Shown: positions 5,871-35,670, counted from the first letter of the stretch. The stretch is DNA of 64,000 nt from Candidatus Aminicenantes bacterium (GCA_026393835.1 JAPKZK010000020.1:13034-77033), one strand, 5' to 3'. Notes: generated by a model from the letters alone, not told the origin. Numbers and translations are program-made.

Positions 5871-6284
5871 TTATTTTAAAAAATTGGAAATACTTTCACT
5901 TAATTCTTTTTTTTGAGATGCCTTTATTTCACATTGCCATATGATCATATATTTCCAGCAAAGGAGTTCCAGCCGCTTATAATTCGCTCTGTCTCTTTCG
6001 GCATTACCGGTAAGTTTTTTTTTCCAGAAATCGGCATTTGCAGTAGGTAAAGCGGAACGTTTACATCCCTCATGCCCATGCCAAAAACAACCGTGCACAA
6101 ATATTACTTTTTTATACTTTGTAAAAACCAAATCCGGGTTTCCCGGCAAATCTTTTTTATGTAAGCGGTATCGATATCCCATTGAGTGAACCAATTTCCG
6201 GATAAAGACTTCCTGTTTTGAACCTGTCGGTTTAATTTTTCTCATTATTTCCGAGCGTTTTTCGGGTGGGAAAATATCAGTCAC
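5871..6284 (-). CDS. vsr: Very-short-patch repair endonuclease Vsr
   Basis: 137 aa. RSEIMRKIK, PDLVF...KVIFVHGCFWHGH and ...FW..K...N..RD match Vsr. It overlaps the upstream C5-MTase by 8 nt, the classical dcm-vsr arrangement. Confidence 0.9.
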   Translation of the reverse strand: MTDIFPPEKRSEIMRKIKPTGSKQEVFIRKLVHSMGYRYRLHKKDLPGNPDLVFTKYKKVIFVHGCFWHGHEGCKRSALPTANADFWKKKLTGNAERDRANYKRLELLCWKYMIIWQCEIKASQKKELSESISNFLK

Positions 6285-7305: not shown

Positions 7306-8770
7306 TTTCGAATATCTTTTTAAAATTTTTGGAAATTAAATCGGATACAACCTTCGGATAGTCTGGGGTTCCGTATCCGGATATTGTACTGAAAATATGC
7401 TGGATAAGGGGCGTTAAAAAGGGTTCGGATATTGTCGCGATTCTATTGAATTTGAAATCTCCAGCATATTTAAGGCTTCTTTCTTTTTTAGGAGTCGGAT
7501 TACCGTCTTCTTTCAATTCAATTTTTTGATTCATTAATTCTTGTGGGAAGAGTGAAAAATCTTTATAACCATTACTGCATTTTAGAAATGGTAATATCAA
7601 CATCCCTTTGATATATTCCGGGGAGGCTGAAAAGGAATTGAATTTTGCGTTGTCCATTAGTTTTTTTTTTTCTCGGGTCAGTGTGATTTGTTTTTTTAAA
7701 TGTTCATTGTCATTCTGTATTTCATGTATAGGGAGTAAATTTATATATCCGTAATTTTTGTGCCAAAATCTTGCCAAATCGCAATCGGCGGTAACGACTA
7801 TAAAGAATTTATTATCTTGTTCGAATATATCGCCCTTTCTGACGATATCGTCACTCGGGTTATAATAGAGCCTATATGCCCACAATTCTTGGGATATTTT
7901 ATCAATATTGGTCTTATTGTCGACTGGAAATTTACTCCGAGTATGTTCTAAGGCCGAAGATATTACATTATTTCTTATTTTTTCAGAAATCAAATCAAGC
8001 AATTGTTCCGATATTTCTCGATTTATCCCGCTATTTTTAAGGAATGCACATAATTCATCATCACAGACTAGATTGCCTTTTATCTTCTCTCCAATCATGT
8101 TTTTTAAATCGTCACTTATTTGTTCACCATTCCCCCCTAAAAGCTGCAACGTATCGTCAATATGCAATTCTCCCAATCGAATCAGTATCCTGTCCAATGC
8201 ATTTACCGTAGTTTTTCTTAATTGGCTACCGAATTTGAAAGAGAAATTCTCTTTATATAGAGCTCTTATTTTCGTCATTAGTTCAGTTGGGCTCGTTGAG
8301 TCTTTATTTAAATTGAGTTTATCGACATATTCCAATCTTTTTCTAAAACATTTAAATACATTATTATCTATTATTTTCTTAATTTCAATCTCTTTGTCGG
8401 CTCCTGAATAGATATATATATAAGAATAGCACTTATTTAATATTTCAAGTAATTTTTTTTCCTGGTCAATCGTAGGGGAAAAATCCCAATCGAAAATGAT
8501 GATTTCAACTCTAAGTAATTCTTTTTCATGGCTGTTTAAAAAAAACTCCGGATGGGTAAATGCATAAACATTCCAAATATAATCATTGCCTTCTTTCTCA
8601 TTCAAAAGTTTTGTAAATAATTCATATAAAGGAATCTCTTTTCCCCAATCCGCTTCTTCACTCAACAGTTTATGTAAAACAATTGAATTTAATAACGAAT
8701 TTTTTTTTATGTTGTGTGCGGCTGCAACTTGATTAATGCCGTCATCTATTATGCAGATTGAATATTGCAT
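7286..8770 (-). CDS. Hypothetical protein with an N-terminal receiver (REC)-like module and an uncharacterised C-terminal half (candidate effector)
   Basis: 494 aa, very AT-rich. ICIIDDG (aa 5-11), EIIIFDWDF (aa 89-97), YIYIYSGA (S122) and K140/K144 reproduce the DD...D...S/T...K spacing of receiver domains, with a ~40-aa insert after beta1. The C-terminal region contains GDIF..(9)..FIVVTADCDLARFWHK. I recognise no known nuclease family. It overlaps the neighbouring genes on both sides. Confidence 0.45.
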   Translation of the reverse strand: MQYSICIIDDGINQVAAAHNIKKNSLLNSIVLHKLLSEEADWGKEIPLYELFTKLLNEKEGNDYIWNVYAFTHPEFFLNSHEKELLRVEIIIFDWDFSPTIDQEKKLLEILNKCYSYIYIYSGADKEIEIKKIIDNNVFKCFRKRLEYVDKLNLNKDSTSPTELMTKIRALYKENFSFKFGSQLRKTTVNALDRILIRLGELHIDDTLQLLGGNGEQISDDLKNMIGEKIKGNLVCDDELCAFLKNSGINREISEQLLDLISEKIRNNVISSALEHTRSKFPVDNKTNIDKISQELWAYRLYYNPSDDIVRKGDIFEQDNKFFIVVTADCDLARFWHKNYGYINLLPIHEIQNDNEHLKKQITLTREKKKLMDNAKFNSFSASPEYIKGMLILPFLKCSNGYKDFSLFPQELMNQKIELKEDGNPTPKKERSLKYAGDFKFNRIATISEPFLTPLIQHIFSTISGYGTPDYPKVVSDLISKNFKKIFENEIHGN

Positions 8771-11472: not shown

Positions 11473-11528
11473 TTTACCTGCTTACTTTTTCGTCTTCGTT
11501 TTGATTTTAAACCCAAACCGAATGTATA

Positions 11529-11557
11529 AATATAAACCATCTTGATTCAAAAATCAA
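11529..11557 (-). promoter_or_regulatory. Putative sigma70-type promoter for the 11472..5871 operon
   Basis: On the minus strand it reads TTGATT-17 nt-TATATT, about 55 nt upstream of the ATG at 11472. It overlaps a small hairpin, tcttgatt/aatcaaga. Confidence 0.3.
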
Positions 11558-11618
11558 GAGCGAATATTCCGGTAATATACCATTTTTTTCCATACCGACC
11601 CCTTTAACCAGATATACT

Positions 11619-11915
11619 CTACGTACATCGGGTATTGGAATATTTCCGTAAAGTAATGAATTTTGTCGGTCTTCCAAAATCCCAATTCCCGGCGGCTTCC
11701 TTAACCAATGGCGAAGGGTCCGGGAGATTGTCTTTGAATTTATTATAGGTATCGATAACCGCGTCTTTGGTGTTTTCAAGGACGCAGTCCATACGGCGCA
11801 AAACCACGAAAGGCAGTATCACATCGCCATATTCATGCTGTTTAAACGCGCCCCTTAAGATATCATCCGCCACCTGCCGGATAAAATTGGCCTTATCCTT
11901 GAAATTGTTCATCAA
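11619..11915 (-). pseudogene. hsdM: Truncated N-terminal fragment of a type I R-M methyltransferase (HsdM-like)
   Basis: KANFIRQVADDILRGAFKQHEYGDVILPFVVLRRMDCVLENTKDAV matches the conserved N-terminus of HsdM / N6-adenine MTases. The frame terminates after ~98 aa and no catalytic domain follows. Confidence 0.7.
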
Positions 11916-12041
11916 GACCTCTCTTGTAAAATATTATTAGAAAGCATTGCACCACCTTTTGCAATTAAAATAAAGTTAGCCGCGAAGAACGCGAAGGACC
12001 GCGAAGAGAGAAAAATTTTGCCTGTCTCCTTCTCCTTTTCC

Positions 12042-21459: not shown

Positions 21460-24159
21460 TCATGAATGGGTGCGAAGAACACGAAAACCGATCACATCGT
21501 ACAGGTAATCGGGGCCGCCGTTGCTGCGGGCAGCGCAACGCATATTATGTGCGCCATCATACCACGAACCGCCGCGAAGCGCATACCAATTATTCGCTGC
21601 ATCATAATAATTGTCCATCCATTCCCAGGCATTGCCGGCCATGTCCATTAAACCTTCGGGTGTGGCGCCTTCGGGGCAGTGCCCCACGGGAGTGGAGGCC
21701 CCGACATTTTTATTGTAATTGGCCAGGTTGGGGTTGGGTTCACCTTTGTATGCCGGCCAGGGATATTTACGCAGTGATCCGCCGGGTTCCCTACCGGCAG
21801 CCGCCCATTCCCATTCTTTTTCCGTGGGCAGCCTGTAAATAGATGCAAGCTGATGGATATCCGGATTTTCAATATCTCCCCTCATGGCAATATCCAGGCA
21901 GGAAAGCCAGAAACAATAAGCACGGGCCGCATACCAGCTTACCGCAACCACCGGTTGATCGTCATCATAAAATTTTTTATCATCATCCAGCCTGGAAGGG
22001 AGTTTAACCTGCCATTCCGTGAAGTTTTCGCCCAGGAATGCGGTATAACCTTTTATGGGCGTCGCAAATTTCAGGAGCCGCTGCGCAAATATTTCCAGTG
22101 GAAGAATTTCTAATAGTTCTTTTTCACGGCCTGCAAGGAAAGAGATGAAGCGCCGGTACCGTTTATTGGTAACCGGGTATTTGCATAAATAGAATCCCGG
22201 GATATTTTCTATTCTACCTGTAACTGAAAATTTATAGACGCCGCCGGGGATATTGATATATTCGACATTGTCTTCAAATGGATTACGAAAAGAGGATTGC
22301 ACAAGGCTCCCTTCGGGTTGTATTTGTTTCTTCAACTCTTGGAACCGGGGAGACGCTTCGGTGATGATATCATCGGCGTACGCCCGATTAACTTTATTCC
22401 AATTTTCATTATTCGCTGTTTCGATGGTCTGTATGGCTTCTGGGGTCCCGATGGTTTTTAAACAGTCCAATACATAACGTCTCTGGTTATTGTTTATTCG
22501 ATCGCTGTTTAAATATTCCTTCAGCGCATCAATTTTTTTCTGGGGGGCTTCCTTGATTAAAAGCTGCAATAAGTTTTGCTGATGGTCGTTCAGTTCCTTA
22601 CTAATATCGGCCTGGAAAAATAAATACATGAATCGATTGAAAATGTTATCATCAGACTCGTTGAAGAAAAAGCGTAGCGTTTCCGTCCACCAATCTTCGC
22701 CAAAATCGTGGATTAAAGCCTCCAAAAAGCCGGTTTCATAAGCTAACTTTCGCAATTCCTGTGCTGCCAGGAATTCCCGGAAGGATTTATGGCGAAAAGC
22801 ATAATAGTCTTTGCTGTGATCGACAATCAAGCCCACGCGGTCCCGTAAATACACACAAAATTCATCAGCCCACGGTGGACTGTTCAATTTATCTAGATAT
22901 TGCTGCATAAATTTATGCATCTCTTCTTTTAAAACCTCATTACTGCGTACTCCCATCTGCATCCAAAGGGCGACGGGAGTCAAAATACTACGTGATTCAT
23001 CAGCGGAAAGCAACGGACCAATCTCCTTTTGCCGGTCGCGATATTCCAGCAAATAGTTCAAGGACGCATCATATAAGTCCGACCGGGTTTCAGGTAAATA
23101 CCGGCGCTCCTTCCAGAGTATGGCCATAATATGCAGCAGCATGGGAACAGCGGCCAATTCTCGCACCGCTTTATTTTCTTCTTTTTTCAAAAAAGAAATA
23201 ATAATCTGCGATTGCCAGTCTGCCTTTTTAATTTGCTGTTCTTTCCATTTTTCCACCGACATATCCGGCGGGGGTAATTGGGTTGAAAAAGCCGCCCGGA
23301 ACCATTTTTTTAAAAATTCGTCCTGCTGTTGTGAAGAAAAATCCATAATATCTACCCGAAAATGGGGCATTTCCAATTCAATGCCGTCTTGCTTGCGGTA
23401 GCCGGCAGCGCGTGAAGTAACCACAAACTGCGTATTCCCCAATATTGAACAAAGATTTCCAAACCAGCGGCACACCTTTCGACGCCTTTCTTTACTGCCG
23501 ATTTCATCCAGCCCGTCCAGCAGCACCAGGGTGTTGTCATCGTCAAGCAACCCGGAAAAAAAATTCTTAGAGAAATTCAATAAACGTCTATCAAACCATT
23601 TTTCCAGGTTCACCGGTATAGATACCGGTTCATCATTTTCATCAAATTCCAATTCTCGCAGGGGAAAGTAAAGAGGAATTATCTTTCTTTCAAATCCCAA
23701 CCGTTTCCATTCTTCAGCGGTTTTATCAAGGCAGGCCAGTGCGTAATACTTCAATAGGGTGGTTTTCCCGGATCCCGGATCCCCGATAATCAGCAGCGGC
23801 TTGTGCTGATTAAAAGCCCTATTCAAGGCATCTTCGGGCGATAAAGGGGGTTCTTCTTCATAAATTCCCATGCCATCACGATTCTTAGAGCCATCGAATC
23901 GATCTTCACTACGCCGGGACACTGAGATACGCAACGAAACAAATGCGTCCTGAAGCCCGACAATCGAACTTTCTATATCCGGTGAACCCAATAAATGAAT
24001 CGTTCCCAGTTCCCTCTTCAGGGCTGTTGAGTACTTTTCTTGTTCTTGTTTTATTCCTTTTTTTGTTTCTTTATTGAGGCGAACAAATATGTAAATAATA
24101 TATCCCAAAATGGCAATACAAAATAAAGCTAATAATGTAAACGCAACTTCTACCGACAT
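21460..24159 (-). CDS. STAND NTPase: N-terminal TM helix, NACHT domain and C-terminal formylglycine-generating-enzyme (FGE/SUMF1)-like domain
   Basis: 899 aa with a TM helix (aa ~5-27), Walker A IIGDPGSGKTTLLKY, Walker B LVLLDGLDE, and a C-terminus YRLPTEKEWEWAAAG...GNAWEWMDNYY...LRGGSW...RCAARS...IGFRVLR, the FGE-sulfatase signature. Confidence 0.8.
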   Translation of the reverse strand: MSVEVAFTLLALFCIAILGYIIYIFVRLNKETKKGIKQEQEKYSTALKRELGTIHLLGSPDIESSIVGLQDAFVSLRISVSRRSEDRFDGSKNRDGMGIYEEEPPLSPEDALNRAFNQHKPLLIIGDPGSGKTTLLKYYALACLDKTAEEWKRLGFERKIIPLYFPLRELEFDENDEPVSIPVNLEKWFDRRLLNFSKNFFSGLLDDDNTLVLLDGLDEIGSKERRRKVCRWFGNLCSILGNTQFVVTSRAAGYRKQDGIELEMPHFRVDIMDFSSQQQDEFLKKWFRAAFSTQLPPPDMSVEKWKEQQIKKADWQSQIIISFLKKEENKAVRELAAVPMLLHIMAILWKERRYLPETRSDLYDASLNYLLEYRDRQKEIGPLLSADESRSILTPVALWMQMGVRSNEVLKEEMHKFMQQYLDKLNSPPWADEFCVYLRDRVGLIVDHSKDYYAFRHKSFREFLAAQELRKLAYETGFLEALIHDFGEDWWTETLRFFFNESDDNIFNRFMYLFFQADISKELNDHQQNLLQLLIKEAPQKKIDALKEYLNSDRINNNQRRYVLDCLKTIGTPEAIQTIETANNENWNKVNRAYADDIITEASPRFQELKKQIQPEGSLVQSSFRNPFEDNVEYINIPGGVYKFSVTGRIENIPGFYLCKYPVTNKRYRRFISFLAGREKELLEILPLEIFAQRLLKFATPIKGYTAFLGENFTEWQVKLPSRLDDDKKFYDDDQPVVAVSWYAARAYCFWLSCLDIAMRGDIENPDIHQLASIYRLPTEKEWEWAAAGREPGGSLRKYPWPAYKGEPNPNLANYNKNVGASTPVGHCPEGATPEGLMDMAGNAWEWMDNYYDAANNWYALRGGSWYDGAHNMRCAARSNGGPDYLYDVIGFRVLRTHS

Positions 24160-24227: not shown

Positions 24228-24256
24228 ATTGTATAGAAAATTGCTTCCTATTTCAA
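24228..24256 (-). promoter_or_regulatory. Putative sigma70 promoter for the NACHT gene
   Basis: The minus strand reads TTGAAA-17 nt-TACAAT, about 70 nt upstream of the start at 24159. Confidence 0.4.
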
Positions 24257-24273: not shown

Positions 24274-25050
24274 TTAATCCTTCGATACATATTCACCAAA
24301 CCCCGCAGCTCTAAAATAAGCTCTACGAAAACCGGCAAATCGCTTATTTGCCCTGGTATCTTCTTTAATTTTATTAAGGAATTCATTTTTTAACTCTTGA
24401 TTATTGGTATATTTAGCAAGAATTATTGTTCCAACAATGGTTTGAAAACGATCAATTAGTCCCGTCCGCTCTTCCTTAACCTCCTCCTTATTGATTGCCG
24501 TTAATTCAAAGGCAGTTTTATGACCGCGGCCTTCCTTATCCAATCCCACGGCTATAACCAAGTTTTCATTAACTTCCTGCCAGACAAACCCGATAAATTT
24601 TTCCGGGTCCTCATCAACCGGATTTATTAATACCGGTTTTTCCAGTTTCAAGTCATCTTCACCTGTGAAAGCCCTTTTACTTCCTCCCAGTAGGGGAAAT
24701 TGAGTCTTTTTGATTTCCTGGTTGCAGCTTTTGCAGGCCAGGAAAAGGTTTTCCCATTCATAGGCCAGCCACCAATAACCGGGATGTCCATTCTCATCCG
24801 ATATTCCTGCTTTGGGCCGGAAATGCTCCACATCGAATTCCCGTTTATCCCGTTTACGTTCACAATAGCAGCATTTACCATCATGCCATTGCCAGAGATA
24901 TTCCTTGATATCGTGCCAGTGTGGTTCAAAATCCGCGGATTTTAAGTTAATTCCGGCTTTAATCATATTTTCGATTTGCTTTTTGGTATCCTCGACTTTT
25001 TTTGATTTCAATGATTCGGGTATAGGGGGCCGTGTTCTTAGTCTAATCAT
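24274..25050 (-). CDS. HNH endonuclease of the PtuB / TIGR02646-like type (Septu-like partner)
   Basis: 258 aa. GKCCYCERKR..FDVEHFRPKA...WENLFLACKSCNQ..K gives CxxC...H...N...CxxC. There is an 8-nt overlap with the upstream ATPase gene. Confidence 0.75.
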   Translation of the reverse strand: MIRLRTRPPIPESLKSKKVEDTKKQIENMIKAGINLKSADFEPHWHDIKEYLWQWHDGKCCYCERKRDKREFDVEHFRPKAGISDENGHPGYWWLAYEWENLFLACKSCNQEIKKTQFPLLGGSKRAFTGEDDLKLEKPVLINPVDEDPEKFIGFVWQEVNENLVIAVGLDKEGRGHKTAFELTAINKEEVKEERTGLIDRFQTIVGTIILAKYTNNQELKNEFLNKIKEDTRANKRFAGFRRAYFRAAGFGEYVSKD

Positions 25051-27376
25051 GTTCGTTTTTTGGGGTTGTTAATTGCTCGAGATTTTTCAACATCTTCTCC
25101 AGCCGCTGCTGCATCAGCCGGGTTTCAGCGTCTTCGGCCGCCCCGGGCAAGGTTTTTTCCAGTAACTCGCCTAATCCTTTAAATTCCTCTTCTTCTTGCT
25201 GCGTACGGGATCCTTTTAGATAGAGGGTCCCGAGTCTTTCCAGCTTTTCTGCTGTTTCCGGGTTGCGTGTGGTGGGCAGTTCAAACGCCTCCGATGTCAG
25301 GATTTGATCGGCCCTCAACCCACGCAGAGAAAAAATTGGGACTAATTCTACCGGTTCATTGGGTATCTTATGAAATCGTAATACCTGGTACTCATCATCA
25401 TCCAGGTCTGTAATACCGGCAACGCACATGGGAGAATGCGTTGCGGCAATAAATTGGATGCCGGGAAATTGTTCTTTTAACAATTGGATAATATATCGCT
25501 GCCACCGGGGATGTAAATGCTGCTCGATTTCATCCACCAGTACTATCCCGGATATCAGATTGGGGTCAAGCTGCCGGTCGTCCAGCATATTCCAGGCAAT
25601 AAGATCCAGCGCCCAGGCCGCCGTATTCTTATAACCATCTCCTTGATCTTGCAACCTGGACCGCCCCCCGGCATTAACCAATTCGATACCTCTGCCGGTT
25701 AACTCGATATGTTCCTTCCCGGTGAAAAGGAACAGTCTTTCGATTAACTTGTAGACAAGATAAAGTATTTCTTGTTCGGCCTCTCTTTCCCGGTCTTTAG
25801 GGGCCCTGCTTCGCGCTTCCAATGCCAGCAGGCTTAAACTGAGTTCCGGGCCCTGCAGGGGTTGGTCATAACGAAAAAGAGTTTCAACTGCTTCTATTAC
25901 CCTGTACTGTTCCGGTTGTTTCCTTAGTTCACTTAAAATCCGCCCGGCACCGTACCCGCAAACAAACAAAAGATGCCGGGGAAAATTCCCCGGTAATATG
26001 AGCTCGACTTCTCCGCTGTCGGAAATATAAAAATATTCCTTTCTTACCTGTTCGGAGCCATTCATCCGGTCGAAGCGGGTAACGATACGATATTGTCCTA
26101 TCCCGGGGGCATTCAACCGGATATCGATGGTTCCCGTCCGTTGGCCGTCTCGAATAAATTTTCCATGGAAATCGGCCAACAATGCCGAGGCATTAGGCTC
26201 ATCGCATATCCCCAGGATCAGGCAGCGGAGAAATGACGTTTTACCCGTGCTGTTATCTCCCAGTAAAAGGGTAAACAACGGCGTATTATTTTTTTCCGAA
26301 ATGAAACCGGCGGATAATGATTCGAACCCCTGGATATTTTCTAAACGGACCCCGGTTAGATAAAAGCTCTTTTGCTCCGATGGCGGCAAAGCGATTTTAC
26401 GCTTTGATTTGAAGGTAAAATAGAATCTTCCATCTTCGCTGTCCGGGTTGACTTCGGTGTTTTTTCTCCATTGTTCATGCTCAGGCAGGTATTTATAGAA
26501 TTGTACCGTTGTCTTACTTTTGATCAAATCGATCTCTACCAGGTTAAAGGAGTTTGGGGTTCGATGTGATGGCTCATCCATCAAATTACCGATCACAACG
26601 GCTTTACCTTTTGTCCCGGCACTGAAGGCAGCGATGGGTGTATGGGTGTGCCCGGTCATGATCATATCTGTTTTTCGCACCAGCAATTCTTTTGATACCT
26701 CATCAACCGGATGGAAAATGGAAAAAGGATGATGAAAGAAAGCAATAGAAAAATGCGCATTTTCATCTAAGGCAGCCAATGCGTTTTCCACCTGGTATAA
26801 TCCCAACGCCGGTTCTTCTTTGCCATCGATGCTGTAACCGGTGAATAAAGCGCTGTTCAGACCGACCATATTAATTTTGATCGATTGCCCCTGCTTATCA
26901 ATATCCATGGTTTCGACGAAACGGTAGGTGGTATCTGTAAATAGACGGCGCCCCATGGCCTTTTCGGCAAAGGCATTGAAAGCGGTAAATTTGCGTAAAA
27001 GTTTCGGCAAATAAAAGGAGTCGGTCAATAGTTTAGTAATGTCATCCTGGTTTTCAAATGAATACAAACGTTCAATATCTATATCCGAGATTTTTTCCCG
27101 TCGATTAATATCATGATTCCCCGGCACGATAAAAAGACGTTGCGCAGGTAAACCGGTAACGGTTAGAAGTTTCTCGCAAAATGATTCCGCTTCCTTATAT
27201 TCTTCCTCTTTGCCACTGGATGCAATGTCGCCGGAAATAATAATGAAATCAATAAGTTTCTCCCGGGCAACCAGATCTTTGATGGCGTCCAGCATGGAAC
27301 GGGTAACGATGTCCCCGGTTTTTCCCGGGTTGGCGCGCAACTGGAGATCGGATAAGTGAAGATAGCAAAGTTTCAT
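25043..27376 (-). CDS. Fusion of a calcineurin-like metallophosphoesterase (aa ~1-290) and an ABC/SMC-like AAA ATPase (aa ~340-720; PtuA/OLD-ATPase-like)
   Basis: 777 aa. MPE motifs are HLSDLQL, SGDIASSG, VPGNHD, FFHHP and TGHTH. ATPase motifs are LLGDNSTGKTSFLR (Walker A), GDGYKN (signature-like), VLVDEIEQHLHP (Walker B / D-loop) and ATHSP (H-loop). Confidence 0.8.
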   Translation of the reverse strand: MKLCYLHLSDLQLRANPGKTGDIVTRSMLDAIKDLVAREKLIDFIIISGDIASSGKEEEYKEAESFCEKLLTVTGLPAQRLFIVPGNHDINRREKISDIDIERLYSFENQDDITKLLTDSFYLPKLLRKFTAFNAFAEKAMGRRLFTDTTYRFVETMDIDKQGQSIKINMVGLNSALFTGYSIDGKEEPALGLYQVENALAALDENAHFSIAFFHHPFSIFHPVDEVSKELLVRKTDMIMTGHTHTPIAAFSAGTKGKAVVIGNLMDEPSHRTPNSFNLVEIDLIKSKTTVQFYKYLPEHEQWRKNTEVNPDSEDGRFYFTFKSKRKIALPPSEQKSFYLTGVRLENIQGFESLSAGFISEKNNTPLFTLLLGDNSTGKTSFLRCLILGICDEPNASALLADFHGKFIRDGQRTGTIDIRLNAPGIGQYRIVTRFDRMNGSEQVRKEYFYISDSGEVELILPGNFPRHLLFVCGYGAGRILSELRKQPEQYRVIEAVETLFRYDQPLQGPELSLSLLALEARSRAPKDREREAEQEILYLVYKLIERLFLFTGKEHIELTGRGIELVNAGGRSRLQDQGDGYKNTAAWALDLIAWNMLDDRQLDPNLISGIVLVDEIEQHLHPRWQRYIIQLLKEQFPGIQFIAATHSPMCVAGITDLDDDEYQVLRFHKIPNEPVELVPIFSLRGLRADQILTSEAFELPTTRNPETAEKLERLGTLYLKGSRTQQEEEEFKGLGELLEKTLPGAAEDAETRLMQQRLEKMLKNLEQLTTPKNEHD

Positions 27377-29118
27377 TTTTTTCCTTTTCCTGTTTTTTTT
27401 CCTGTTTTTTTTTCTTCTTTTTTAGTTTCGGCGGCTTCCCATTTTTTCAATTCGACTTTTCCCTCGGTGCCGATGTAATAGGTGTCGGTATCGCGGCTGG
27501 TAATTTCAGGCATTCTCAATATCCGCGGCGTGATGCTTAATAATATATCGGTGCGTTCGCTGTTCTTGGTGTTGGAGGAAAATATCTCTTTGAGAATCGG
27601 CAGCCGGTTTAAGAAGGGAATACCGGTGACGCCGCTGCTGCTGGTTCCTTTCATCAGCCCCGCGATGATACCCGTCTCCCCGTCCCTCAAGCGTAATTTT
27701 GTCGTTACTTTACGGCTTCCCAATGTGGGCGGCACATAGTTACTTCCCATATCGATCACGTTGGTTAACTCGAATTGCAGTTCCATGGTGACTTCCCGGT
27801 TGGAATGGACGACAGGGGTAAGAGTTATGGATATACCCACATCGGTCATGGCAAAGGAAGTAATGGGCTGCTGGTTGACGCCGCCGCTGGCAATGGGGAC
27901 AAAAGTGGTCCTGGGGATGGGGCGCTGCTCGCCCAATTGAACGGTTATTTTTTCTTTGTCCAGGCCCCTTATTTTAGGTTGGGCCAATATTTTCGAATCC
28001 GTGATGGATGAGTAAAACTTCCAGACCATTTGCGGCACCGACATGATGATGTCGCTGGAACTGATATTATCGATTTCATTGACATTGATCCCGGAATCGG
28101 TTCCTTCGACCTTTGCGCCCACCTGCCAGGACGAAAGTTCTGCGCCATATTCACTCAATTTTTTGTTGTTGACTTCCAATATTTCGATTTCCACTTCGAT
28201 TTCTGCTTTTCTTTTATCGATAAATTGGGCTAACTTTTCAACCAATAGCAGGTTTTCCAGGGAATCGGTGACAACCAGGGAATTGGTCAGGTCATTTAAG
28301 GTCATTTGTTCGGGTTTGAAAGTTTTCTCGATGATCTTTTTGGCGTCTTCGGCGCCGACATTGGCAAAATAGATATTCTTTATCAATAGCTTTTTGTAAC
28401 GTTTAGCGCTGTCCCCGGTGTTCAGCGCGATGACGATGTTCTTATCATCCAGGATATAATAGCTGCATTTATAAATCCGGCAGATATGTTCCAGGGCTTC
28501 ATGAAATGTCACATCCAGGAGTTTCAGGGTTACCCGTATGTCTTTAAATTCAGAGTCGAAAAGAATGTTCACATCTCCTGTTTTTGCTAAAACCCCGAAT
28601 ATAGCCATCAGGCTTGTAGGGGATTTGAATTCCAGGTCCAGGCGTTCCTGGCTTTTCATTATTGCCGGCAGTCCGGTGTTGATTTCTACCTCTTTTTTTA
28701 ACTCCTCGATGGGTTTAACCGCTAGTTCACCCCGGCCAAGTTCCAGCAAGTTTTTTCTTACTTCGCTGTTGCCGGGGTCGAATTGGAGGGATTTTTTATA
28801 GAGAAAGAGCGCTTTGGTTTTATTGCCGGCCTCTTCTTCAGCTTTGCCCGCTTGAAAATAATAAATAGAAGCCTCTTTCAATACCCGGTCGATCTCGACT
28901 TTTAGGGCGATGCGTTTTGGGTGGGATTTTAGGGCTTTGAAATAGTATGTCAGGGCTTCTTCGTATTGTTTATTTTTTTTAAGAAACTCCGCCCGTTTGA
29001 GATGGTGGCCGGTACACCCGGGGAAAAGAAGGGGGATGATGACCAGGCCGGCAAGAAAAAGTAAAAGCGCCCGCTTCCCATGAAAAAACTTTGTATAGTT
29101 CCTATTGTTCATTCTCAT
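27373..29118 (-). CDS. Orphan secretin-family outer-membrane protein with lipoprotein signal and N-terminal TPR repeats
   Basis: 581 aa with LLFPGC (lipobox), TPR-like helices, a Secretin_N-like module (...VVTDSLENLLLVEKLAQFIDK) and a C-terminal secretin core (GETGIIAGL...GIPFLNRLPILKEIF....TDILLSITPRIL). The ATGA stop/start overlaps the downstream MPE-ATPase gene. Confidence 0.8.
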   Translation of the reverse strand: MRMNNRNYTKFFHGKRALLLFLAGLVIIPLLFPGCTGHHLKRAEFLKKNKQYEEALTYYFKALKSHPKRIALKVEIDRVLKEASIYYFQAGKAEEEAGNKTKALFLYKKSLQFDPGNSEVRKNLLELGRGELAVKPIEELKKEVEINTGLPAIMKSQERLDLEFKSPTSLMAIFGVLAKTGDVNILFDSEFKDIRVTLKLLDVTFHEALEHICRIYKCSYYILDDKNIVIALNTGDSAKRYKKLLIKNIYFANVGAEDAKKIIEKTFKPEQMTLNDLTNSLVVTDSLENLLLVEKLAQFIDKRKAEIEVEIEILEVNNKKLSEYGAELSSWQVGAKVEGTDSGINVNEIDNISSSDIIMSVPQMVWKFYSSITDSKILAQPKIRGLDKEKITVQLGEQRPIPRTTFVPIASGGVNQQPITSFAMTDVGISITLTPVVHSNREVTMELQFELTNVIDMGSNYVPPTLGSRKVTTKLRLRDGETGIIAGLMKGTSSSGVTGIPFLNRLPILKEIFSSNTKNSERTDILLSITPRILRMPEITSRDTDTYYIGTEGKVELKKWEAAETKKEEKKTGKKTGKGKK

Positions 29119-29171
29119 GTGTTATCTTCAAAGAGATAAGAAGTATAACACAAGTTGGAAGTTTTTAAAAG
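29066..29171. repeat. Direct repeat copy 1 (106 bp): the first 17-18 codons of the secretin gene plus 53 nt upstream
   Basis: 101/106 identical to 35741..35846 by manual alignment. Confidence 0.9.
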
Positions 29172-29221
29172 GATTTTACTGGTCCCAGGGCGAAACTCGC
29201 ATCATGATGAACTACCATGAG

Positions 29222-29432
29222 CAAAAAAGGATAAATCGACGACCTAAAAGGACAGGGCGACTTCAAAAAAGGATCAACATACGCTAAAATAAGATCAACA
29301 TTCAATAAAATAAGATCAACACACAAGAGCGATGGACAAAAATTCACTAAAAAAAGATAAAAAAACGCTGAGAATGGGCAAACGGAGATCAAGAAAAGAT
29401 AAACAAGCAGACAGAAAGGGTAATTGCCGATC
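29222..29432. repeat. 21-bp-phased degenerate array, about 10 units, A-tract-leading orientation (aaaaGGAtcaacat...)
   Basis: The anchor RG dinucleotide that follows each A-run recurs at 29230, 29251, 29272, 29293, 29314, 29335, 29356, 29377, 29398 and 29419, which is an exact 21-nt period. Confidence 0.8.
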
Positions 29433-29460
29433 ATTGACAGGCTATATGTTTGTCCCTCTG

Positions 29461-29670
29461 GCGTCGATGATGCCCCTATTGGTGTGATTGATGACCTTAT
29501 TTGCATCGATGATGACCTTATTCCAGTGAACAATGACCTTTTTTTTCGGTTGATTTATCCTCGTCGCCTATCCATTAACCTTTTTTGGTTATAGGTTAAT
29601 CTTTTTCAATGAGATGTTTGTCCTTTTTGCCGCATCGATTACCTTTTGCATTGGTTTGTTCCAGTTCGCC
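29461..29670. repeat. 21-bp-phased degenerate array, about 10 units, in inverted orientation relative to 29222..29432
   Basis: tgatgMcc anchors occur at 29468, 29489, 29510 and 29531, then units decay at a 20-22 nt period. The reverse complement of the unit tgcatcgatgatgaccttatt (aataaggtcatcatcgatgca) matches the forward units (aaaaaggatcaacatacgct). Confidence 0.7.
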
Positions 29671-29842: not shown

Positions 29843-30163
29843 TCATGCCCCCGAACTCTGGTAAATGATTTCGCCTGTGCTCAGGATTTCCTCGAAAAAA
29901 CCAGACAGGTCTTTATGATCTCTTTCGATTAAAACCGGCTCGATCCTGCAATCGATATCAGTTCCAAGTTTGAATAATTGTTGCCTGGATTTGAGGTAAT
30001 CTTTATCATTATGATCGACGACAACAGCCACATCGATATCGCTGTGTTCCCTACCGCAATTTTTGGCATATGAGCCGAATAGTATCACCATGCGAACCGG
30101 GAAGTTTTTTTTTACTACTTCCGCATATTTTTTTACTTTGCTTATAACTTCTGCTTTATCCAT
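29843..30163 (-). CDS. Nucleotidyltransferase (MNT-type) antitoxin-like protein
   Basis: 106 aa with the minimal NTase motif ILFGSYAKN...SDIDVAVVV. It overlaps the upstream HEPN gene. Confidence 0.8.
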   Translation of the reverse strand: MDKAEVISKVKKYAEVVKKNFPVRMVILFGSYAKNCGREHSDIDVAVVVDHNDKDYLKSRQQLFKLGTDIDCRIEPVLIERDHKDLSGFFEEILSTGEIIYQSSGA

Positions 30164-30534
30164 AGCTGGAATTCCTTTGTTTGAGTTAAAATGTCACGGC
30201 ATCTTTCCTGGTTTAAAATTTGATTGATACGCTCTTTATAGGAAGGATACCTGGCTTCGACATTTAAAGGCCGGATTAGATTGATGAAATCTTTTTGATC
30301 GTCGGATAGTTCCTCCGATATACCCACTTCCCTTGTCAATGACGTTAAATTGTGTGAATAGGGAGGAGTGGATTTTAGGGTTGAAACATATAATGCTTTA
30401 AGAATTTTTTCAATTACCTGGTGGCACATGAAGCCAACATATAAAAATCGTTTGCTTTCGAGCATGACCTGGGCGGTTTCCAGATCGTAATCGGATAATT
30501 CTACCCAATAGATAATTTTTTCCTCTATTTCCAT
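30142..30534 (-). CDS. HEPN domain protein (toxin-like partner of MNT)
   Basis: 130 aa. A..DL..A..ML, CHQVIEKILKAL, HNL and EARYP are typical of HEPN. Confidence 0.75.
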   Translation of the reverse strand: MEIEEKIIYWVELSDYDLETAQVMLESKRFLYVGFMCHQVIEKILKALYVSTLKSTPPYSHNLTSLTREVGISEELSDDQKDFINLIRPLNVEARYPSYKERINQILNQERCRDILTQTKEFQLWIKQKL

Positions 30535-30616
30535 AGAGGTATTATATTATGAAATTCTTTATTTTTCAATAAGGAGACTCGATTCGGCAGACACTGTCTA
30601 ACTTGCTATTTTAAAA

Positions 30617-31888
30617 TCATTTCTTGCCCAGGATAATATCCGGTACTTGCGGCAGGGCCAACCATTGGGCAAATTTGTTATAGGTCCGGCCAACTTTTTG
30701 CGCCAACTCCACCCCTTTTTTTGTTCCTTCCAATATCTTGCTAAACTTTGAATCTTTATCGCCCATCTTCTCCAATAAACGGCCTAATTTATTTAACGGT
30801 TTGGCCAGTTCCTTTTCCTTCGCTTTCATGGTTAACCCATCCAGGCCGTCTTCGACTTTTGCCAATTCCGCCAATTCCTTTTCCAGGGCCGGGACAAGGG
30901 TGTCGAAACCTTCGTTGTTTTTGCAGGAGACGCGGTAAAAGCTTTTAAGGTTGGGGTATTTATCTTGCAGGAATTTACGATTCAGCTCGAAACCCGGGTT
31001 TGCATCGGTTTTGTTGATGACCACCAGCACCGGGGAGTGGCCGCCGAAGCTTTCGATGTGTTTAAGCCAGTATTCGGTTTTTTCATCCTTGCGGCCGTCC
31101 AGTACCAGGAGGTAAAGGCTGCGTTTGGACAGGAAGAATTGGTGGGTGGCGTGCATGATTTCCTGGCCGCCGAAATCCCAGAGATGGGCTTTGATGGTTT
31201 TGCCGTCTTGTTTAACGGTCCAGGGTTTGATATTAATGCCGTGGGTTTGGGGTTCGCCGATATTAAAGTCCAGGCCCAGGAGGCGATTGACCAGGGAGGT
31301 TTTACCGGCGGCGCCGTCGCCCACCAGCAGGACTTTGACTTCATTTAACGGCAGGGTATCTTCCTTTAAGGAATCGAAATAAGCCTTTATGGCAGTTTTG
31401 CCCTGTTTAATAATCTCCAGCGGCGGTTTTTCCAGGGGGTTGCCGTAGAGATTCAAGCTGTAAAAAGATAAATCATCTTTCCACTCCATTGCCATGCCGG
31501 GCCACAAGGAGGTGAAATCGGGAGAAAGTTCTCGGATGAGATTTTTGTGGACATCCAATGTTGTTAAATGCTTCAATTCCCTCAGCGGCGTGAGGTCGGC
31601 GATTTGATTGTTACTTAAATAAAGCTCTGTCAGGTTCGACAGGGCCATCAGCGGCATGAGGTCCGTGATTTGATTACTACTTAAATACAGATGGGTTAAG
31701 CCGCTTAAACTCCTTAGAAACGAAATATCTTTAATTTCTCTGTTATCCAGGTTCACCCCCTGCACCTGCCCCGTTTTATCCAGGGCATAGCCATTTTCAA
31801 TCCCCCATATTCCCTCAAGCGGACGTGGTTTTAATTTTCCCCCGGTTAGCTTCTCGATCTTTCTTATAATCTCCATATCATGGGCCAT
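30617..31888 (-). CDS. Leucine-rich-repeat plus Roc/Ras-like small GTPase protein (Roco-like, no recognisable COR domain)
   Basis: 423 aa. There are LRRs (LTHLYLSSNQITDL, LTELYLSNNQIADL, LTTLDVHKNLI) and a GTPase module with G1 LVGDGAAGKTSL, G3 WDFGGQE and G4 INKTD. The ~80-aa helical, lysine-rich tail is shorter than any COR domain. Confidence 0.75.
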   Translation of the reverse strand: MAHDMEIIRKIEKLTGGKLKPRPLEGIWGIENGYALDKTGQVQGVNLDNREIKDISFLRSLSGLTHLYLSSNQITDLMPLMALSNLTELYLSNNQIADLTPLRELKHLTTLDVHKNLIRELSPDFTSLWPGMAMEWKDDLSFYSLNLYGNPLEKPPLEIIKQGKTAIKAYFDSLKEDTLPLNEVKVLLVGDGAAGKTSLVNRLLGLDFNIGEPQTHGINIKPWTVKQDGKTIKAHLWDFGGQEIMHATHQFFLSKRSLYLLVLDGRKDEKTEYWLKHIESFGGHSPVLVVINKTDANPGFELNRKFLQDKYPNLKSFYRVSCKNNEGFDTLVPALEKELAELAKVEDGLDGLTMKAKEKELAKPLNKLGRLLEKMGDKDSKFSKILEGTKKGVELAQKVGRTYNKFAQWLALPQVPDIILGKK

Positions 31889-32055
31889 ATGATCTCCTTA
31901 GGAGTTGTAATGAAATAAATTGATCGTTTTAGCATTCGGAATTTTTCCCTCAAATCAAGGGCAAATTTCAAGAACAATTCAGACCATTCGGTACAATAAA
32001 GGTATTCTTGCGATGTTTTTTGCCTTTCATACGGCCTTTTTAAGTATCCTTAACC

Positions 32056-32202
32056 GGTGGGAATGTCATTTTCAGTGGTGGGCAGATCGTTTTCATTGGC
32101 GGGAATGTCATTTTCAGCGGTGGGCAGATTGTTTTCATTGGTGGGAATGTCATTTTCAGTGGTGGGCAGATCGTTTTCATTGGTGGGAATGTCATTTTCA
32201 TG
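32056..32202. repeat. Tandem array of seven 21-bp sub-units alternating between two types (ggtgggaatgtcattttcagt / ggtgggcagatcgttttcatt), i.e. 3.5 copies of a 42-bp unit
   Basis: Near-perfect copies when read directly. Degenerate T-tract units continue upstream to about 32008. The ORF 31920..32303 (WECHFQW/WADRFHW heptads) is probably an artefact of the period. Confidence 0.9.
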
Positions 32203-32437
32203 AGTTAGAATGTTATTTCCCGGGTGAAAAATGGCGTAAACTGAAGATTTTTCCCGTCAAAAGGTTGAAAGGAATGATTCTCATGGAAAACAAGACTATA
32301 TGATTTGTTCCAAAAGGCAGCGAAAATGATCCAGTTATTTCATTACAATGCCTTATCGCTTTAAATGGGCGTTGAAACCGCGTTACAAGTTACAAGTTTC
32401 AATAATCAATCATACCACAGCAGGGAAATAAAAGAAA

Positions 32438-32637
32438 GAATGATGAATGATGAATGATGATAGGTGAGTGGTAGAGTGGTGGAGTAGTAGAATGGTAAAA
32501 AAAAATCTGTGTTAATCTGTGTAATCTGTGGACACATCTTTCTCTCCTTACTCGTGGGCTGTTTTTGTTTTGAATTTTGAGCTTTTGAATTTTGAATTTG
32601 TTTCGAATTTCGAGTTTCGGATTTCGGATTTTTTTCA
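32438..32637. repeat. Composite simple-repeat block
   Basis: Read directly: (gaatgat)x3 plus decayed 7-mers at 32438..32500, aatctgtg x3 at 32504..32531, and ttttgaa/tttcgag/tttcgga 7-mers at 32562..32637. The overlapping ORFs 32399..32648 look spurious. Confidence 0.8.
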
Positions 32638-32769
32638 AATCCTGCCAAAAAATGTCAGGATTTCACGGGTTATTAATTAGTGACATTCTGGATATGCATA
32701 AAAAATGTTCTTGTTTACGGTCGCCATAGTGTTGGATTAACGGTAACACATCGGTGGGGAATTTAATCT

Positions 32770-33753
32770 TTAAGCCTTCTTCTTTAACTCTTTTACGGCT
32801 AGATCAAAATCAGAAATCATATTCTTACTTCGTTCAGCCCTATATTTTTCAAATTCATCTTCAGTTTTTTGGGCAGCGGTTTCGGCGCTCACATTCCCGG
32901 CGTGGGTCAACAGTTCTTTTTCACTCAGCTTCAAAAAAGCATCCAATTTGGCAATCCAATCGTTCATTTTCATCAAGCGGCCGTTGGTTGCCTGCAATTC
33001 GGCAAAATCAAGATACAGCGAAACAATCAGGTTGAGTTGATGCAACTCTTTTTCCGTTAGGTAGTTCTTGGCAATTTTTGCATCCTGCGCGGTAATATAG
33101 TTACCTTTAAAGTTTACCAGCCCCATCAGGGGCTTTGTGCTATCGGCGCGGCTTACAATCATCTGGGCGGCGGTTTGGCCGTGCACGGCATAATGCATTT
33201 TGTTCTGGACCGTCGCAAAGAAGGTTTTTGTCAACGCATCGTCGCTTCGATAATCAATGCTGGTGGCATAAATATCGGTTACTTTCTGGTAAAAATTACG
33301 CTCGCTGCTTCGTATATCACGGATGCGCTGTAATAATTCTTGAAAATAACGCGCCTTTTGTCCACCCTGTTTTAAGCGCTCATCATCTAAGGTAAAACCT
33401 TTTATGATGTATTCCTTAATTCTTTGGGTTGCCCAGCTACGGAACTGGGTGCCCTGGACTGATTTAACGCGGTAGCCAACAGAAATTATGACATCCAGAT
33501 TATAGAAATTGGTTGGCTTGGTAGAAAATTCGGAAATTCCGAATTTTCTCATGGTTGATTCTTCTGTAAGTTCTTGCTCTTCATATACATTTTTTATATG
33601 TTCGTTAATCGTTGACTTTGACTTTCCATATAAATCCGCCATTTGATCTTGTGTCAGCCAGACCGTCTCATCTTCCAAACGAACTTCCAATTTTGTCTGC
33701 CCGTTTTTTCCCTGGTAAATAATAATTTGTGACTCGTTTCCCGGGGTCTTCAT
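32770..33753 (-). CDS. RhuM-family virulence/Fic-associated protein
   Basis: 327 aa. IIIYQGKNGQTKLEVRLEDETVWLTQDQMADLYGKSKSTINEHIKN...NLDVIISVGYRVKS..GTQFR.WAT is highly characteristic of RhuM. Confidence 0.8.
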   Translation of the reverse strand: MKTPGNESQIIIYQGKNGQTKLEVRLEDETVWLTQDQMADLYGKSKSTINEHIKNVYEEQELTEESTMRKFGISEFSTKPTNFYNLDVIISVGYRVKSVQGTQFRSWATQRIKEYIIKGFTLDDERLKQGGQKARYFQELLQRIRDIRSSERNFYQKVTDIYATSIDYRSDDALTKTFFATVQNKMHYAVHGQTAAQMIVSRADSTKPLMGLVNFKGNYITAQDAKIAKNYLTEKELHQLNLIVSLYLDFAELQATNGRLMKMNDWIAKLDAFLKLSEKELLTHAGNVSAETAAQKTEDEFEKYRAERSKNMISDFDLAVKELKKKA

Positions 33754-33951
33754 TCTACTTCCTCCGCTTCAATCAAGCTATTCCTGACTTTTTTCTTCAT
33801 GGGCATAGTATTATATTGCAAATCCTGTTTTTTTGCAACTCTCGAAAAACCTCCCGGAACTTTTGCTAATCAAAAGGGCTTTCCGAACGCCCCGACGCGG
33901 GGGAGGTTTTTAAGAATTGAATTTATTCCTATTTTGCGGTATTATTATCCC

Positions 33952-35670
33952 ATGAAAAAACACAGCCCGAAACGTGAAAAACAATATTTACCGCTAAGTA
34001 AATCCACCTTTTCAAAATATGTCGAAGACAATTGCATATATGTGGATAAAACCCGTTATATTCATCCCCTGGTCCAGGCGGGCGGCGCTTATTTCTTATC
34101 ACGCCCCAGGCGCTTCGGCAAATCATTAACGGTTTCCGTCCTGAAAGAAATCTTCCAGGGCAACCGGGAGCTTTTTAAAGGCTATTGGATTTATAACCGC
34201 ATCAACTGGGGAAAATACCCGGTTATTCACCTGGACTTCCTTAAAATCGATTTCAGGGCCCTGGGCATTGAAAAAGCCATCGACAACGAATTGCAACGAA
34301 TCGCGCAAGATTATGGCATCCCATGCCGCGGGGACAGCATCTCGGAAAAATTCAGCTTTTTAATCGATCAATTATCGCAGGACCGGCGTATCGCTGTCCT
34401 CATCGACGAATACGATAAACCGGTTACCGATTACCTCGAAGATATTAACACCGCTGTCTATAATAGGGATATCCTCAGAAACTTCTATTCGGTTCTTAAA
34501 AGTCGGGAAGGAAATATCAAATTTCTCTTCATGACCGGCATCTCTCGCTTTACCCGCCTGTCGATTTTCAGCGACCTGAACCACCTCATCGATATCTCTT
34601 TCCATAAGGATTACACAAAACTACTGGGCTATACCGGGGAAGAGATCGAAATGTACTTCGACGCTTATATCAATGACTGGCTGCAACTGCATAAGGGAAG
34701 CGGCAGCGGAAACGGAAGCGGAAGCACGAAAGCCGAATTAATGGAAAAATTAAAAAATTATTACAACGGCTATTCCTGGAATGGGAAAGATTTTGTCTAT
34801 AACCCGTATTCCATCAACAACTTTTTCTACAGCATGGAATTCAAAAATTATTGGTTTGCCAGCGGAACCACGACTTCCCTGGTAAAATTGGTCAAGGAAA
34901 AAAATATCGCCGTCGAAAACTGGGAGTACCTGGAGGTTCGCGAGCAATTCTTCGATAAATTCGATATCACCGACATTAATATTAATTTAATGCTTTTCCA
35001 GACCGGGTATTTAACGGTAAAAAAACGCCTCGAGGATACCTATGTCTTATCGTACCCCAACCGGGAAGTAGAGTCTGCTTTATTAAATAATTTAATGGAG
35101 GCATATTCAGGACACAGCCTGGAAGATACGGAAAAATTAATCAAAGATATAAAGGAGGCATTGGAAAAAAAACAATTGGACTCCTTTATCAATCAAATGA
35201 AAGCCTTTATTGCTTCTATACCCTATAATCTTGTGGAGGCCGGGGCGGAGAGATTTTATCACCTGGTTTTTTACATGGCCCTGAAATTATTGATCGGCAA
35301 AGTCTACCCTGAGAAATATACCAACCTCGGCCGGATCGATACCGTCGTAGAGACCGGCGGTTTCATTTATCTTATCGAATTCAAGATGGGCAGTGCCGCT
35401 GAAGCGTTAACGCAAATCCTGGAAAAGAAGTATTATGAACAATATCTTGCCCAACCAAAAAAAATAATCTTATTGGGAATCGGTTTTAGCGTAAAGGATA
35501 GGAATATCTCCGGTTATGAAGCCATTGAAAAAACAGGCTATCCCGGGGCCGAAGAGAAGCCCGGAAAGACCGTCGATTTACTCGAAAAAGCCGTCGCCGC
35601 CATCGAGGCCTTGGAGTGCAGCGCTGAAGTGAAAGAGCGCTTAAAAGCGGTCCTGGAAGAAAAGAAATAA
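33952..35670 (+). CDS. AAA-ATPase-like (PF09820-type) plus PD-(D/E)xK nuclease (PDDEXK_9-type) protein, copy 1
   Basis: The ORF track starts at 33799. I prefer the ATG at 33952 (MKKHSPKREKQYLPLSKSTFSKYVEDNCIYVDKTRYI...FLSRPRRFGKS). The C-terminus has GRIDTVVE...IYLIEFK. Paralogue of 56046..57791. Confidence 0.7.
   Translation: MKKHSPKREKQYLPLSKSTFSKYVEDNCIYVDKTRYIHPLVQAGGAYFLSRPRRFGKSLTVSVLKEIFQGNRELFKGYWIYNRINWGKYPVIHLDFLKIDFRALGIEKAIDNELQRIAQDYGIPCRGDSISEKFSFLIDQLSQDRRIAVLIDEYDKPVTDYLEDINTAVYNRDILRNFYSVLKSREGNIKFLFMTGISRFTRLSIFSDLNHLIDISFHKDYTKLLGYTGEEIEMYFDAYINDWLQLHKGSGSGNGSGSTKAELMEKLKNYYNGYSWNGKDFVYNPYSINNFFYSMEFKNYWFASGTTTSLVKLVKEKNIAVENWEYLEVREQFFDKFDITDININLMLFQTGYLTVKKRLEDTYVLSYPNREVESALLNNLMEAYSGHSLEDTEKLIKDIKEALEKKQLDSFINQMKAFIASIPYNLVEAGAERFYHLVFYMALKLLIGKVYPEKYTNLGRIDTVVETGGFIYLIEFKMGSAAEALTQILEKKYYEQYLAQPKKIILLGIGFSVKDRNISGYEAIEKTGYPGAEEKPGKTVDLLEKAVAAIEALECSAEVKERLKAVLEEKK

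Follow-up and report, generated by a model that had tools for sequence, protein, structure and literature searches.

What does a metallophosphoesterase (MPE) do at the N-terminus of a PtuA-type ABC ATPase, and does the resulting protein resemble an SbcCD nuclease or belong to a Septu system? The question is raised by one gene in a 64,000-nucleotide stretch of DNA from a Candidatus Aminicenantes bacterium (GCA_026393835.1, JAPKZK010000020.1:13034-77033; the whole stretch is called the window below), which encodes both domains in a single chain and is followed by the gene for a PtuB HNH nuclease. We find that the two genes form a Septu operon. On balance, if by no great measure, we think it probable that the PtuA of this operon captured an accessory hydrolase or regulatory MPE module with a remodelled metal site.

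Results

An MPE is joined to PtuA in a Septu operon

A first-pass annotation of the window had placed an open reading frame (ORF) for this protein at 25043-27376. These limits are exact, the ORF lies on the minus strand and encodes 777 residues, and every motif that the annotation had quoted is found in the translation. The genes and domains of the operon are as follows.

25043-27376, minus strand: MPE-PtuA fusion gene, a single 777-residue ORF plus stop (Pfam, PADLOC, seven full-length relatives)
26402-27376, minus strand: N-terminal MPE module, residues 1-325, a catalytic core followed by a C-terminal beta cap
25046-26362, minus strand: PtuA ABC ATPase domain, residues 339-777 (PADLOC, PDB sequence matches, structural model)
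24274-25050, minus strand: PtuB HNH nuclease gene, 258 residues (PADLOC, Pfam, NCBIfam, junction sequence)

In the fusion protein (P0001), Pfam assigns residues 6-247 to Metallophos (E 3e-11) and matches AAA_21/AAA_15 within the C-terminal half, and the PtuA profiles of PADLOC span residues 334-770 (best E 9e-54). The MPE motifs are HLSD (residues 7-10), GDIASSG (49-55), GNHD (86-89), FFHHP (213-217), and GHTH (242-245), and those of the ATPase are GDNSTGKT (373-380), VLVDEIEQHLHP (612-623), and ATHSP (645-649). That the gene joins an MPE to a PtuA-type ATPase and is partnered by an HNH PtuB is thus borne out by Pfam and PADLOC. When the locus was checked with PADLOC, PtuA and PtuB profiles both matched and the MPE fell outside the PtuA profiles; the long PtuA profiles of this collection have a PtuB-like N-terminus where the fusion has its MPE. 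Because seven proteins of other assemblies (P0004-P0009 and P0014, 38-71% identity) align with P0001 over the full length, the fusion is real and not an accident of assembly.

The ORF downstream of the fusion matches the PADLOC profile PDLC00339 (E 7.5e-54), Pfam HNH (E 2.7e-5), NCBIfam PtuB, and TIGR02646, and the residues of a CxxC...H...N...CxxC pattern are visible in its translation. Its ATG lies 8 nucleotides inside the end of ptuA, as read from the junction sequence. Because a PtuB HNH gene follows with this 8-nucleotide overlap, the ptuA-ptuB pair is a Septu operon whose ATPase carries an extra N-terminal domain. The same gene stands directly after the fusion at two other loci, L002 (42% identity) and L079 (71% identity), and at 45 of the 49 PtuA loci scanned PtuA is followed by a PtuB-like ORF or fused to one. 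A survey of ORFs and Pfam domains over 16.7-35.7 kb of the window revealed no reverse transcriptase or noncoding RNA beside the operon.

The ATPase is a PtuA of a subfamily with variable N-termini

The Walker A (GDNSTGKT), Walker B (VLVDEIE), and H-loop (ATHSP) motifs of the ATPase are all intact, and 11 fusions all share residues G373, K379, D615, E616, and H647. Its closest solved relatives in a PDB sequence search are retron Ec83 PtuA, Ec78 PtuA, and E. coli PtuA. An AlphaFold2 (AF2) model of the domain (predicted local distance difference test (pLDDT) 89.5) was compared with known folds, giving VIA Z values of 28-29 for PtuA structures, 21 for Rad50, about 20 for SMC heads, and 19.3 for both SbcC and GajA. 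In this model the ATPase part comprises about 440 residues, the insert between its two halves is predicted to be made up of beta strands with two helices, 15 and 20 residues long, and no long coiled coil is present.

When P0001 was compared with 1.84 billion cluster representatives, 19,560 matches were obtained at E <= 1e-3. Of the 150 best, only P0007, P0008, and P0014 aligned across the two halves; a further protein, P0149, has the two domains in more divergent versions. An N-terminal extension of at least 88 residues is present in 65 of the 110 PtuA domains collected. Pfam analysis of 50 N-extended PtuAs found TIR in 22 and PNP_UDP_1 in 3, one each of caspase, CHAT-STAND, SIR2-NACHT, HD-CE, REC, and MPE, and also LRR-Roc-COR-TIR chains. 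Because Pfam finds TIR, PNP, and other domains at this position, the N-terminus of the window's PtuA subfamily is a slot for conflict-system effector domains. The statement that canonical PtuA lacks an N-terminal nuclease or phosphatase module therefore holds for the E. coli protein and does not extend to the window's subfamily, given the 65 extended domains.

The MPE belongs to a family found on STAND NTPases

The identity of the N-terminal module was examined by profile searches. The NCBIfam model DS8_antiphage (NF053861) aligns to residues 7-306 (E 3e-32; 111 bits against a cut-off of 790), and the DS9_1 phosphoesterase model (NF053862) aligns to residues 5-103 (E 6e-15), also below its full-length cut-off; such scores are as expected because only one domain is held in common. 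In PADLOC, the CBASS-group 'Effector' profile PDLC00736 matches the N-terminal 320 residues (E 1e-31) and PDC-S60 matches residues 6-309 (E 1e-27). In a collection of 5.8 billion proteins, the recorded Pfam domains show this module of about 320 residues joined elsewhere to NACHT plus FGE-sulfatase, NB-ARC plus TPR, TIR, SIR2_2, SAVED, and CHAT. The best of these differently fused MPEs (with NACHT/NB-ARC, TIR, or other partners) are 41-50% identical to P0001, and the MPE of P0025, a 1074-residue MPE-NACHT-FGE protein, is 49% identical over residues 1-327.

From these sequence relationships, the module is of the same family as the one that is N-terminal on STAND NTPases, including the anti-phage protein DS-8. 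DS-8 is described as an MPE-NACHT protein that confers phage defence in E. coli, and its defence is reported to be lost when either the MPE catalytic residues or the NACHT domain is mutated (PMC13092281). It and PDC-S60 resemble the fusion in having this MPE family N-terminal on an oligomerising NTPase; they differ in that a NACHT domain follows the MPE there, whereas here a PtuA ABC ATPase follows and the HNH effector is separate.

The fold of the module points in the same direction. An AF2 model of residues 1-335 (pLDDT 89.5, predicted template modelling score 0.91) gave B. subtilis YydB (9a6c_B) as its top Foldseek match (E 9e-23, TMq 0.78, 22% identity), followed by GpdQ, Rv0805, SMPDL3A/B, and purple acid phosphatases (E about 1e-10 to 1e-8), whereas the Mre11-Rad50 entry came 36th (E 6e-8). 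Based on this ranking of a predicted structure, the module groups with nucleotide and phosphodiester hydrolases and not with Mre11/SbcD. YydB is by far the best fold match, and 9a6c is an integrative, deep-learning-assisted model of YydD-YydB, not a crystal or cryo-EM structure. PDB-chain sequence searches returned no 9a6c chain, YydD was not among the matches listed for the PtuA-domain model, and a literature search for the YydB-YydD pair found nothing. A homodimer prediction with two copies of residues 1-335 gave a score of 0.00 (mark, 0.42) and was counted neither way.

One metal site of the MPE is eroded across the fused clade

To compare the metal-binding residues, 113 MPE modules were aligned, 112 of which have a residue at the position of the motif-I histidine. 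In the window protein motif I reads S-D-L-Q in place of D-x-H, so that Gln12 stands where the metal-binding histidine is expected.

27341-27349, minus strand: motif I codons Asp10-Leu11-Gln12 (translation, 113-module alignment, pairwise alignment to P0025)

The motif-I histidine is present in 102 of the 112 modules. It is gone in all eight members of the clade of close fusions (Q in five, Y in two, L in one), whereas 102 of the 104 modules outside this clade keep it, the exceptions being P0068 and P0098. The second histidine of GHxH (motif V) is likewise gone in three of the eight (P0005, P0007, and P0009) and in 2 of 105 modules outside the clade, again P0068 and P0098. P0014 further carries D10N and H243P. 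All modules outside the clade keep the other ligands, with N at the D50 position in P0098.

The remaining ligands of the window protein are present (D10, D50, N87, H88, H215/H216, H243, and H245), and none of the eight members departs from D50, N87, H88, D89, H215, or H216. The eroded positions are presumably ligands of the alpha (M1) metal, judging from Mre11 and related structures. This pattern indicates that the clade has kept the fold and one metal site and that the other site is eroding. The MPE had been called complete, which does not hold, since the missing motif-I histidine leaves the canonical dinuclear ligand set short of a member; it had also been proposed that degenerate MPE motifs would speak against the reading then offered, and on this the alignment is divided, with the alpha site eroding and the fold and the other site kept. 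Within the clade, pairwise identities of the MPE and PtuA parts are 71/71%, 60/66%, 47/58%, and 37/43%. Because MPE identity tracks PtuA identity and six residues are invariant, the MPE module is still under selection.

MPE and PtuA have been paired more than once

A scan of genome contigs found one full-length fusion (L002) among at least 78 loci, and a metagenome scan with patterns of close relatives found one more, L079. All eight close fusions fall in one 15-row PtuA clade with a support of 100 (FastTree, 110 rows; IQ-TREE, 52 rows). This clade also holds P0010-P0012, which have an AAA_16-like P-loop N-terminus, P0147, with a weak PNP_UDP_1 match, and P0013 and P0124, which have no N-terminal domain. 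These six are the closest PtuA relatives of the fusions and are nested inside the clade in both trees. Because nested relatives carry other N-termini or none, the head domain has been swapped or lost within this lineage.

A second group of fused proteins (P0039, P0041, P0043, and P0149) is monophyletic, lies far away in the PtuA tree, and has canonical DWH and GHQH motifs. When both fused groups were forced into one clade, the log likelihood fell by 251 (p-AU 4e-49 in the approximately unbiased (AU) test, for a grouping named after the first tree had been seen). In the MPE tree the two groups lie in different starred clades among STAND-fused modules. Taken together, these phylogenies indicate that an MPE joined PtuA at least twice independently.

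The pairing is also found in unfused form. In a Scalindua metagenome-assembled genome (MAG) (L039, 4835-7967) and a deltaproteobacterial MAG (L044, 2339-5285), a stand-alone MPE gene lies directly upstream of PtuA-PtuB. These two MPEs have about 290 residues and all canonical motifs and are homologous to each other (E 3e-52), and the PtuB has 228 residues; in PADLOC, one matches PDC-S60 weakly (E 3e-8) and the other has no match. Across the 49 PtuA loci scanned, the MPE is fused in two and encoded upstream in two. The association is rare and recurrent, and its recurrence argues for function over accident.

At L040:6049-7564, in the MAG that contains L002, part of an MPE (profile positions 65-246) immediately precedes a PtuB-like gene, and no PtuA lies in between; these may be the remains of an MPE-PtuA-PtuB locus that has decayed. 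No recent MPE donor was found in the genome of the window: its 8.2-Mb assembly contains nine further MPE-region matches, at 27-38% identity, one of which covers only residues 28-92. Several of the nine lie in frames of 1040-1134 residues, as in STAND fusions. The assembly (212 contigs) gives about 100 AAA_21 matches, an unusually large conflict-system repertoire.

Defence-type genes surround the operon

The operon is flanked on the same strand by the following features.

27373-29118, minus strand: secretin/TPR gene, upstream (Pfam Secretin, E 8e-31; context only)
21460-24159, minus strand: NACHT plus FGE-sulfatase STAND gene, 899 residues, downstream neighbour (Pfam)
24228-24256, minus strand: promoter-like site TTGAAA-17-TACAAT in the 114-nucleotide gap between ptuB and the NACHT gene, a consensus match only and thus a hint

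The stop of the secretin/TPR gene overlaps the start of the fusion (ATGA, 27373-27376), so that transcription from the secretin promoter may extend into the Septu cassette; L079 does not share this junction. The NACHT-FGE neighbour is probably a separate system. It is adjacent in L079 as well (63% identity) and is absent from L002. Its protein has 1232 homologs at E <= 1e-20, many of them named as Aminicenantes, and the best 120 (46-66% identity) are all without PF00149; more distant NACHT-FGE proteins do carry an MPE. The scan for promoters and terminators that gave the site in the gap found 21 sites, against 15.7 +/- 4.9 in shuffled sequences, which is not clearly above expectation.

Further upstream, the region 29843-35670 contains an MNT nucleotidyltransferase (PDC-S09) and its HEPN partner, a COR-less LRR-Roc GTPase (423 residues), a RhuM-family gene (PDC-S05, E 5e-139), and a gene with AAA-ATPase_like and PDDEXK_9 domains. 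Because these HEPN/MNT, LRR-Roc, RhuM, and AAA-ATPase_like/PDDEXK_9 genes lie nearby, defence-type genes cluster around the operon. A 122-residue ORF at 29165-29533 has no family match. Elsewhere in the window, positions 6001-12000 have a GC content of 0.33-0.40, compared with about 0.45-0.53 on the flanks.

Discussion

A putative switch with two outputs

In the mechanism that we favour, the translationally coupled ptuA and ptuB genes would act as a two-gene anti-phage operon, and the module captured by PtuA would be one that serves many other immune proteins, among them DS-8-type STAND NTPases, CBASS SAVED effectors, and TIR and SIR2 fusions, as their output domain. By analogy, the PtuA part would form an ATP-regulated oligomer that restrains the PtuB HNH nuclease and frees or activates it on infection. 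In published accounts of Septu and retron PtuAB, PtuA is described as oligomerising with PtuB bound between its C-terminal domains, ATP binding or hydrolysis as controlling the nuclease, and DNA nicking and loss of tRNA-Tyr as outputs (PMC12065111, PMC12819146, PMC12673091, PMC13096335). The present operon resembles E. coli Septu (8EE4/8EEA) and the PtuAB pairs of retrons Ec78/Eco7 and Ec83 in its modelled ATPase fold, at Z 28-29, and in having the HNH ptuB immediately downstream and overlapping the ATPase gene. It differs from them in its 325-residue metallophosphatase: the stand-alone PtuA of E. coli has none, and retron PtuA is described as having no more than a short N-terminal stretch, on which the reverse transcriptase docks (PMC12819146).

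The MPE would be tethered to the first ATPase strand by a linker of about 13 residues, at the position of the TIR, PNP, SIR2, and caspase heads of sister proteins. Because it sits where sister PtuAs carry effector domains, it would most likely be a second, nucleotide-directed output or a modulatory domain on the same ATPase switch. By analogy with its family and with its partners elsewhere (TIR, SIR2, and SAVED), the MPE may act on a nucleotide, NAD+ for instance, and not on DNA ends. We expect MPE catalysis to be weak or altered, because the alpha site is remodelled clade-wide, and PtuB would supply the main killing activity. MisA of the DS-9-like system Metis is the only member of the wider MPE group with a known substrate: its calcineurin-like domain is reported to convert NAD+ to NMN and AMP upon detection of m6dAMP by a PUA-like domain, and the authors of that report expect NAD+ cleavage of this kind to be widespread in defence (bioRxiv 10.1101/2025.11.05.686725). 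MisA/DS-9A is a related metallophosphatase, with partial and distant homology to the module (residues 5-103); the fusion has neither the PUA-like sensor of MisA nor the HAD partner of Metis.

Several points weigh against this reading. An NAD+ substrate is carried over two homology steps (from P0001 to DS-8 and from DS-8 to DS-9A/MisA), the DS-9 model reaches no further than residues 5-103, and no substrate is reported for DS-8 (PMC13092281). The gene context of the fusion comes from three loci (the window, L002, and L079), and the PtuA set from which extensions were counted is biased, one search having been length-limited and the other consisting of the best 150 matches. For the window protein itself, defence, oligomer formation, and activity are predictions. 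The losses of the motif-I histidine in all eight members, of the motif-V histidine in three, and of D10 and H243 in P0014 also tell against an active hydrolase, and this clade-wide ligand loss fits a pseudoenzyme as well as an altered enzyme.

Alternative readings of the fusion

It is possible, and we hold it as the lesser expectation, that the MPE is a dead pseudoenzyme that lost one metal site once fused to PtuA, now a domain that senses or docks a ligand (for example, a nucleotide or a phosphorylated end) and regulates PtuA-PtuB, not an effector. The erosion is specific to the fused clade, with any loss seen in only 2 of the 105 other modules, and at least four further losses have occurred in separate lineages (the motif-V histidine of P0005, P0007, and P0009; D10N and H243P in P0014). 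The variable residue at the motif-I histidine position (Q, Y, or L) looks like relaxed constraint, MPE branch lengths in the clade exceed those of the neighbouring STAND-fused modules, and an effector is already supplied by PtuB. There is also a precedent in retron Ec78, where the N-terminal addition of PtuA is described as an adaptor to its regulator (PMC12819146). However, the beta-site ligands and the catalytic histidine of GNHD are invariant in all eight members, which is unexpected for a purely structural domain. Some active MPEs have unusual alpha-site ligands: purple acid phosphatases use a Tyr there, and Dbr1 a Cys. In addition, because the second fused clade and the unfused MPEs of L039 and L044 keep all canonical motifs, the MPE-PtuA partnership in general does not need an inactive MPE. 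A broader proposal, which we regard as unlikely, is that PtuA ATPases are a general chassis for N-terminal effectors that degrade NAD+ or other nucleotides or act as proteases, in parallel to STAND NTPases, with Septu as the form that has its HNH nuclease in trans; here the MPE, having lost its alpha site, would have turned from an effector into a receptor, a nucleotide sensor that gates the HNH nuclease.

The first-pass annotation had seen a single-chain SbcCD/Mre11-Rad50-like architecture, in which an SMC-like ATPase would drive the MPE as a nuclease on phage DNA ends. An MPE-superfamily domain paired with an ABC-ATPase-superfamily domain is formally the SbcD/SbcC pair, weak profile matches exist to SbcD (E 9e-6), Mre11 (E 8e-4), and the N-terminal half of Rad50 (E 6e-3), and Rad50 heads are the next-best fold class for the ATPase model after PtuA (Z about 20-21). 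Yet the SbcD and Mre11 matches cover only residues 3-89 (motifs I-III) and are no better than that to GpdQ (2e-5), the NCBIfam sbcd model yields 15.7 bits where its cut-off is 77.65, and YydB, GpdQ, Rv0805, SMPDL3, and purple acid phosphatases outrank Mre11-Rad50 in fold. The modelled ATPase fits PtuA better than Rad50 or SbcC, and its insert would lack the long coiled coil and hook of those proteins. SbcCD differs further in its MPE family; here there is one chain with an HNH partner and defence-type neighbours, and the STAND, SAVED, TIR, and SIR2 partners of the module suggest nucleotide chemistry and not DNA ends. We give a DNA-end machine very little credence; the likeness is one of superfamilies, and the SbcCD analogy is superficial only. 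The concept of a phosphoesterase-ATPase fusion is shared with Ppl as well, reportedly a defence gene described by Gao and co-workers in 2020 in which a PHP phosphoesterase is fused to an ATPase; the PHP fold is unrelated, and Pfam finds Metallophos here. Equally improbable in our judgement is a three-gene system or insertion scar, in which ptuA-ptuB would lie inside a former MPE-NACHT-FGE gene and the NACHT-FGE protein would work with the MPE in trans. The same-strand order MPE-PtuA, PtuB, NACHT-FGE is exactly the remnant expected, L079 has all three side by side (71% and 63% identity), the neighbour is 22-32% identical to the post-MPE part of MPE-NACHT-FGE proteins, and the closest MPE relatives include such proteins. 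Nevertheless, the family of the neighbour is very large and free of MPEs (the best 120 of its 1232 homologs), its best MPE-bearing matches (P0105, P0107, P0081, and P0040) have MPEs of other clades than that of P0001, it is missing from L002, and it is preceded by the 114-nucleotide gap with a promoter-like site. The insertion of ptuAB into an MPE-NACHT-FGE gene was rejected on the MPE-less homologs, the wrong MPE clades, and the absence from L002.

Implications for Septu systems

The best reading of the MPE-PtuA architecture is that it is a new Septu variant. We found no description of an MPE-PtuA fusion in the literature, in a search that did not cover the ABC-ATPase conflict-system classification or the DefensePredictor and Metis supplements. 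Septu is usually treated as a two-part system of ATPase and nuclease, and one PtuA subfamily routinely has a third, N-terminal enzymatic domain, of the kinds that serve STAND and CBASS systems as effectors. As known here from sequence and models, the locus is a variant on known parts and not a new principle. The fusion of MPE and PtuA on at least two occasions, together with its occurrence as a separate upstream gene, argues for a functional link of defence phosphatases such as DS-8 and Metis with the PtuA switch. The eroded MPE of the window's clade and the canonical MPEs of the second fused clade, L039, and L044 form a natural contrast, and their comparison could show whether such modules have an effector or a sensor role.

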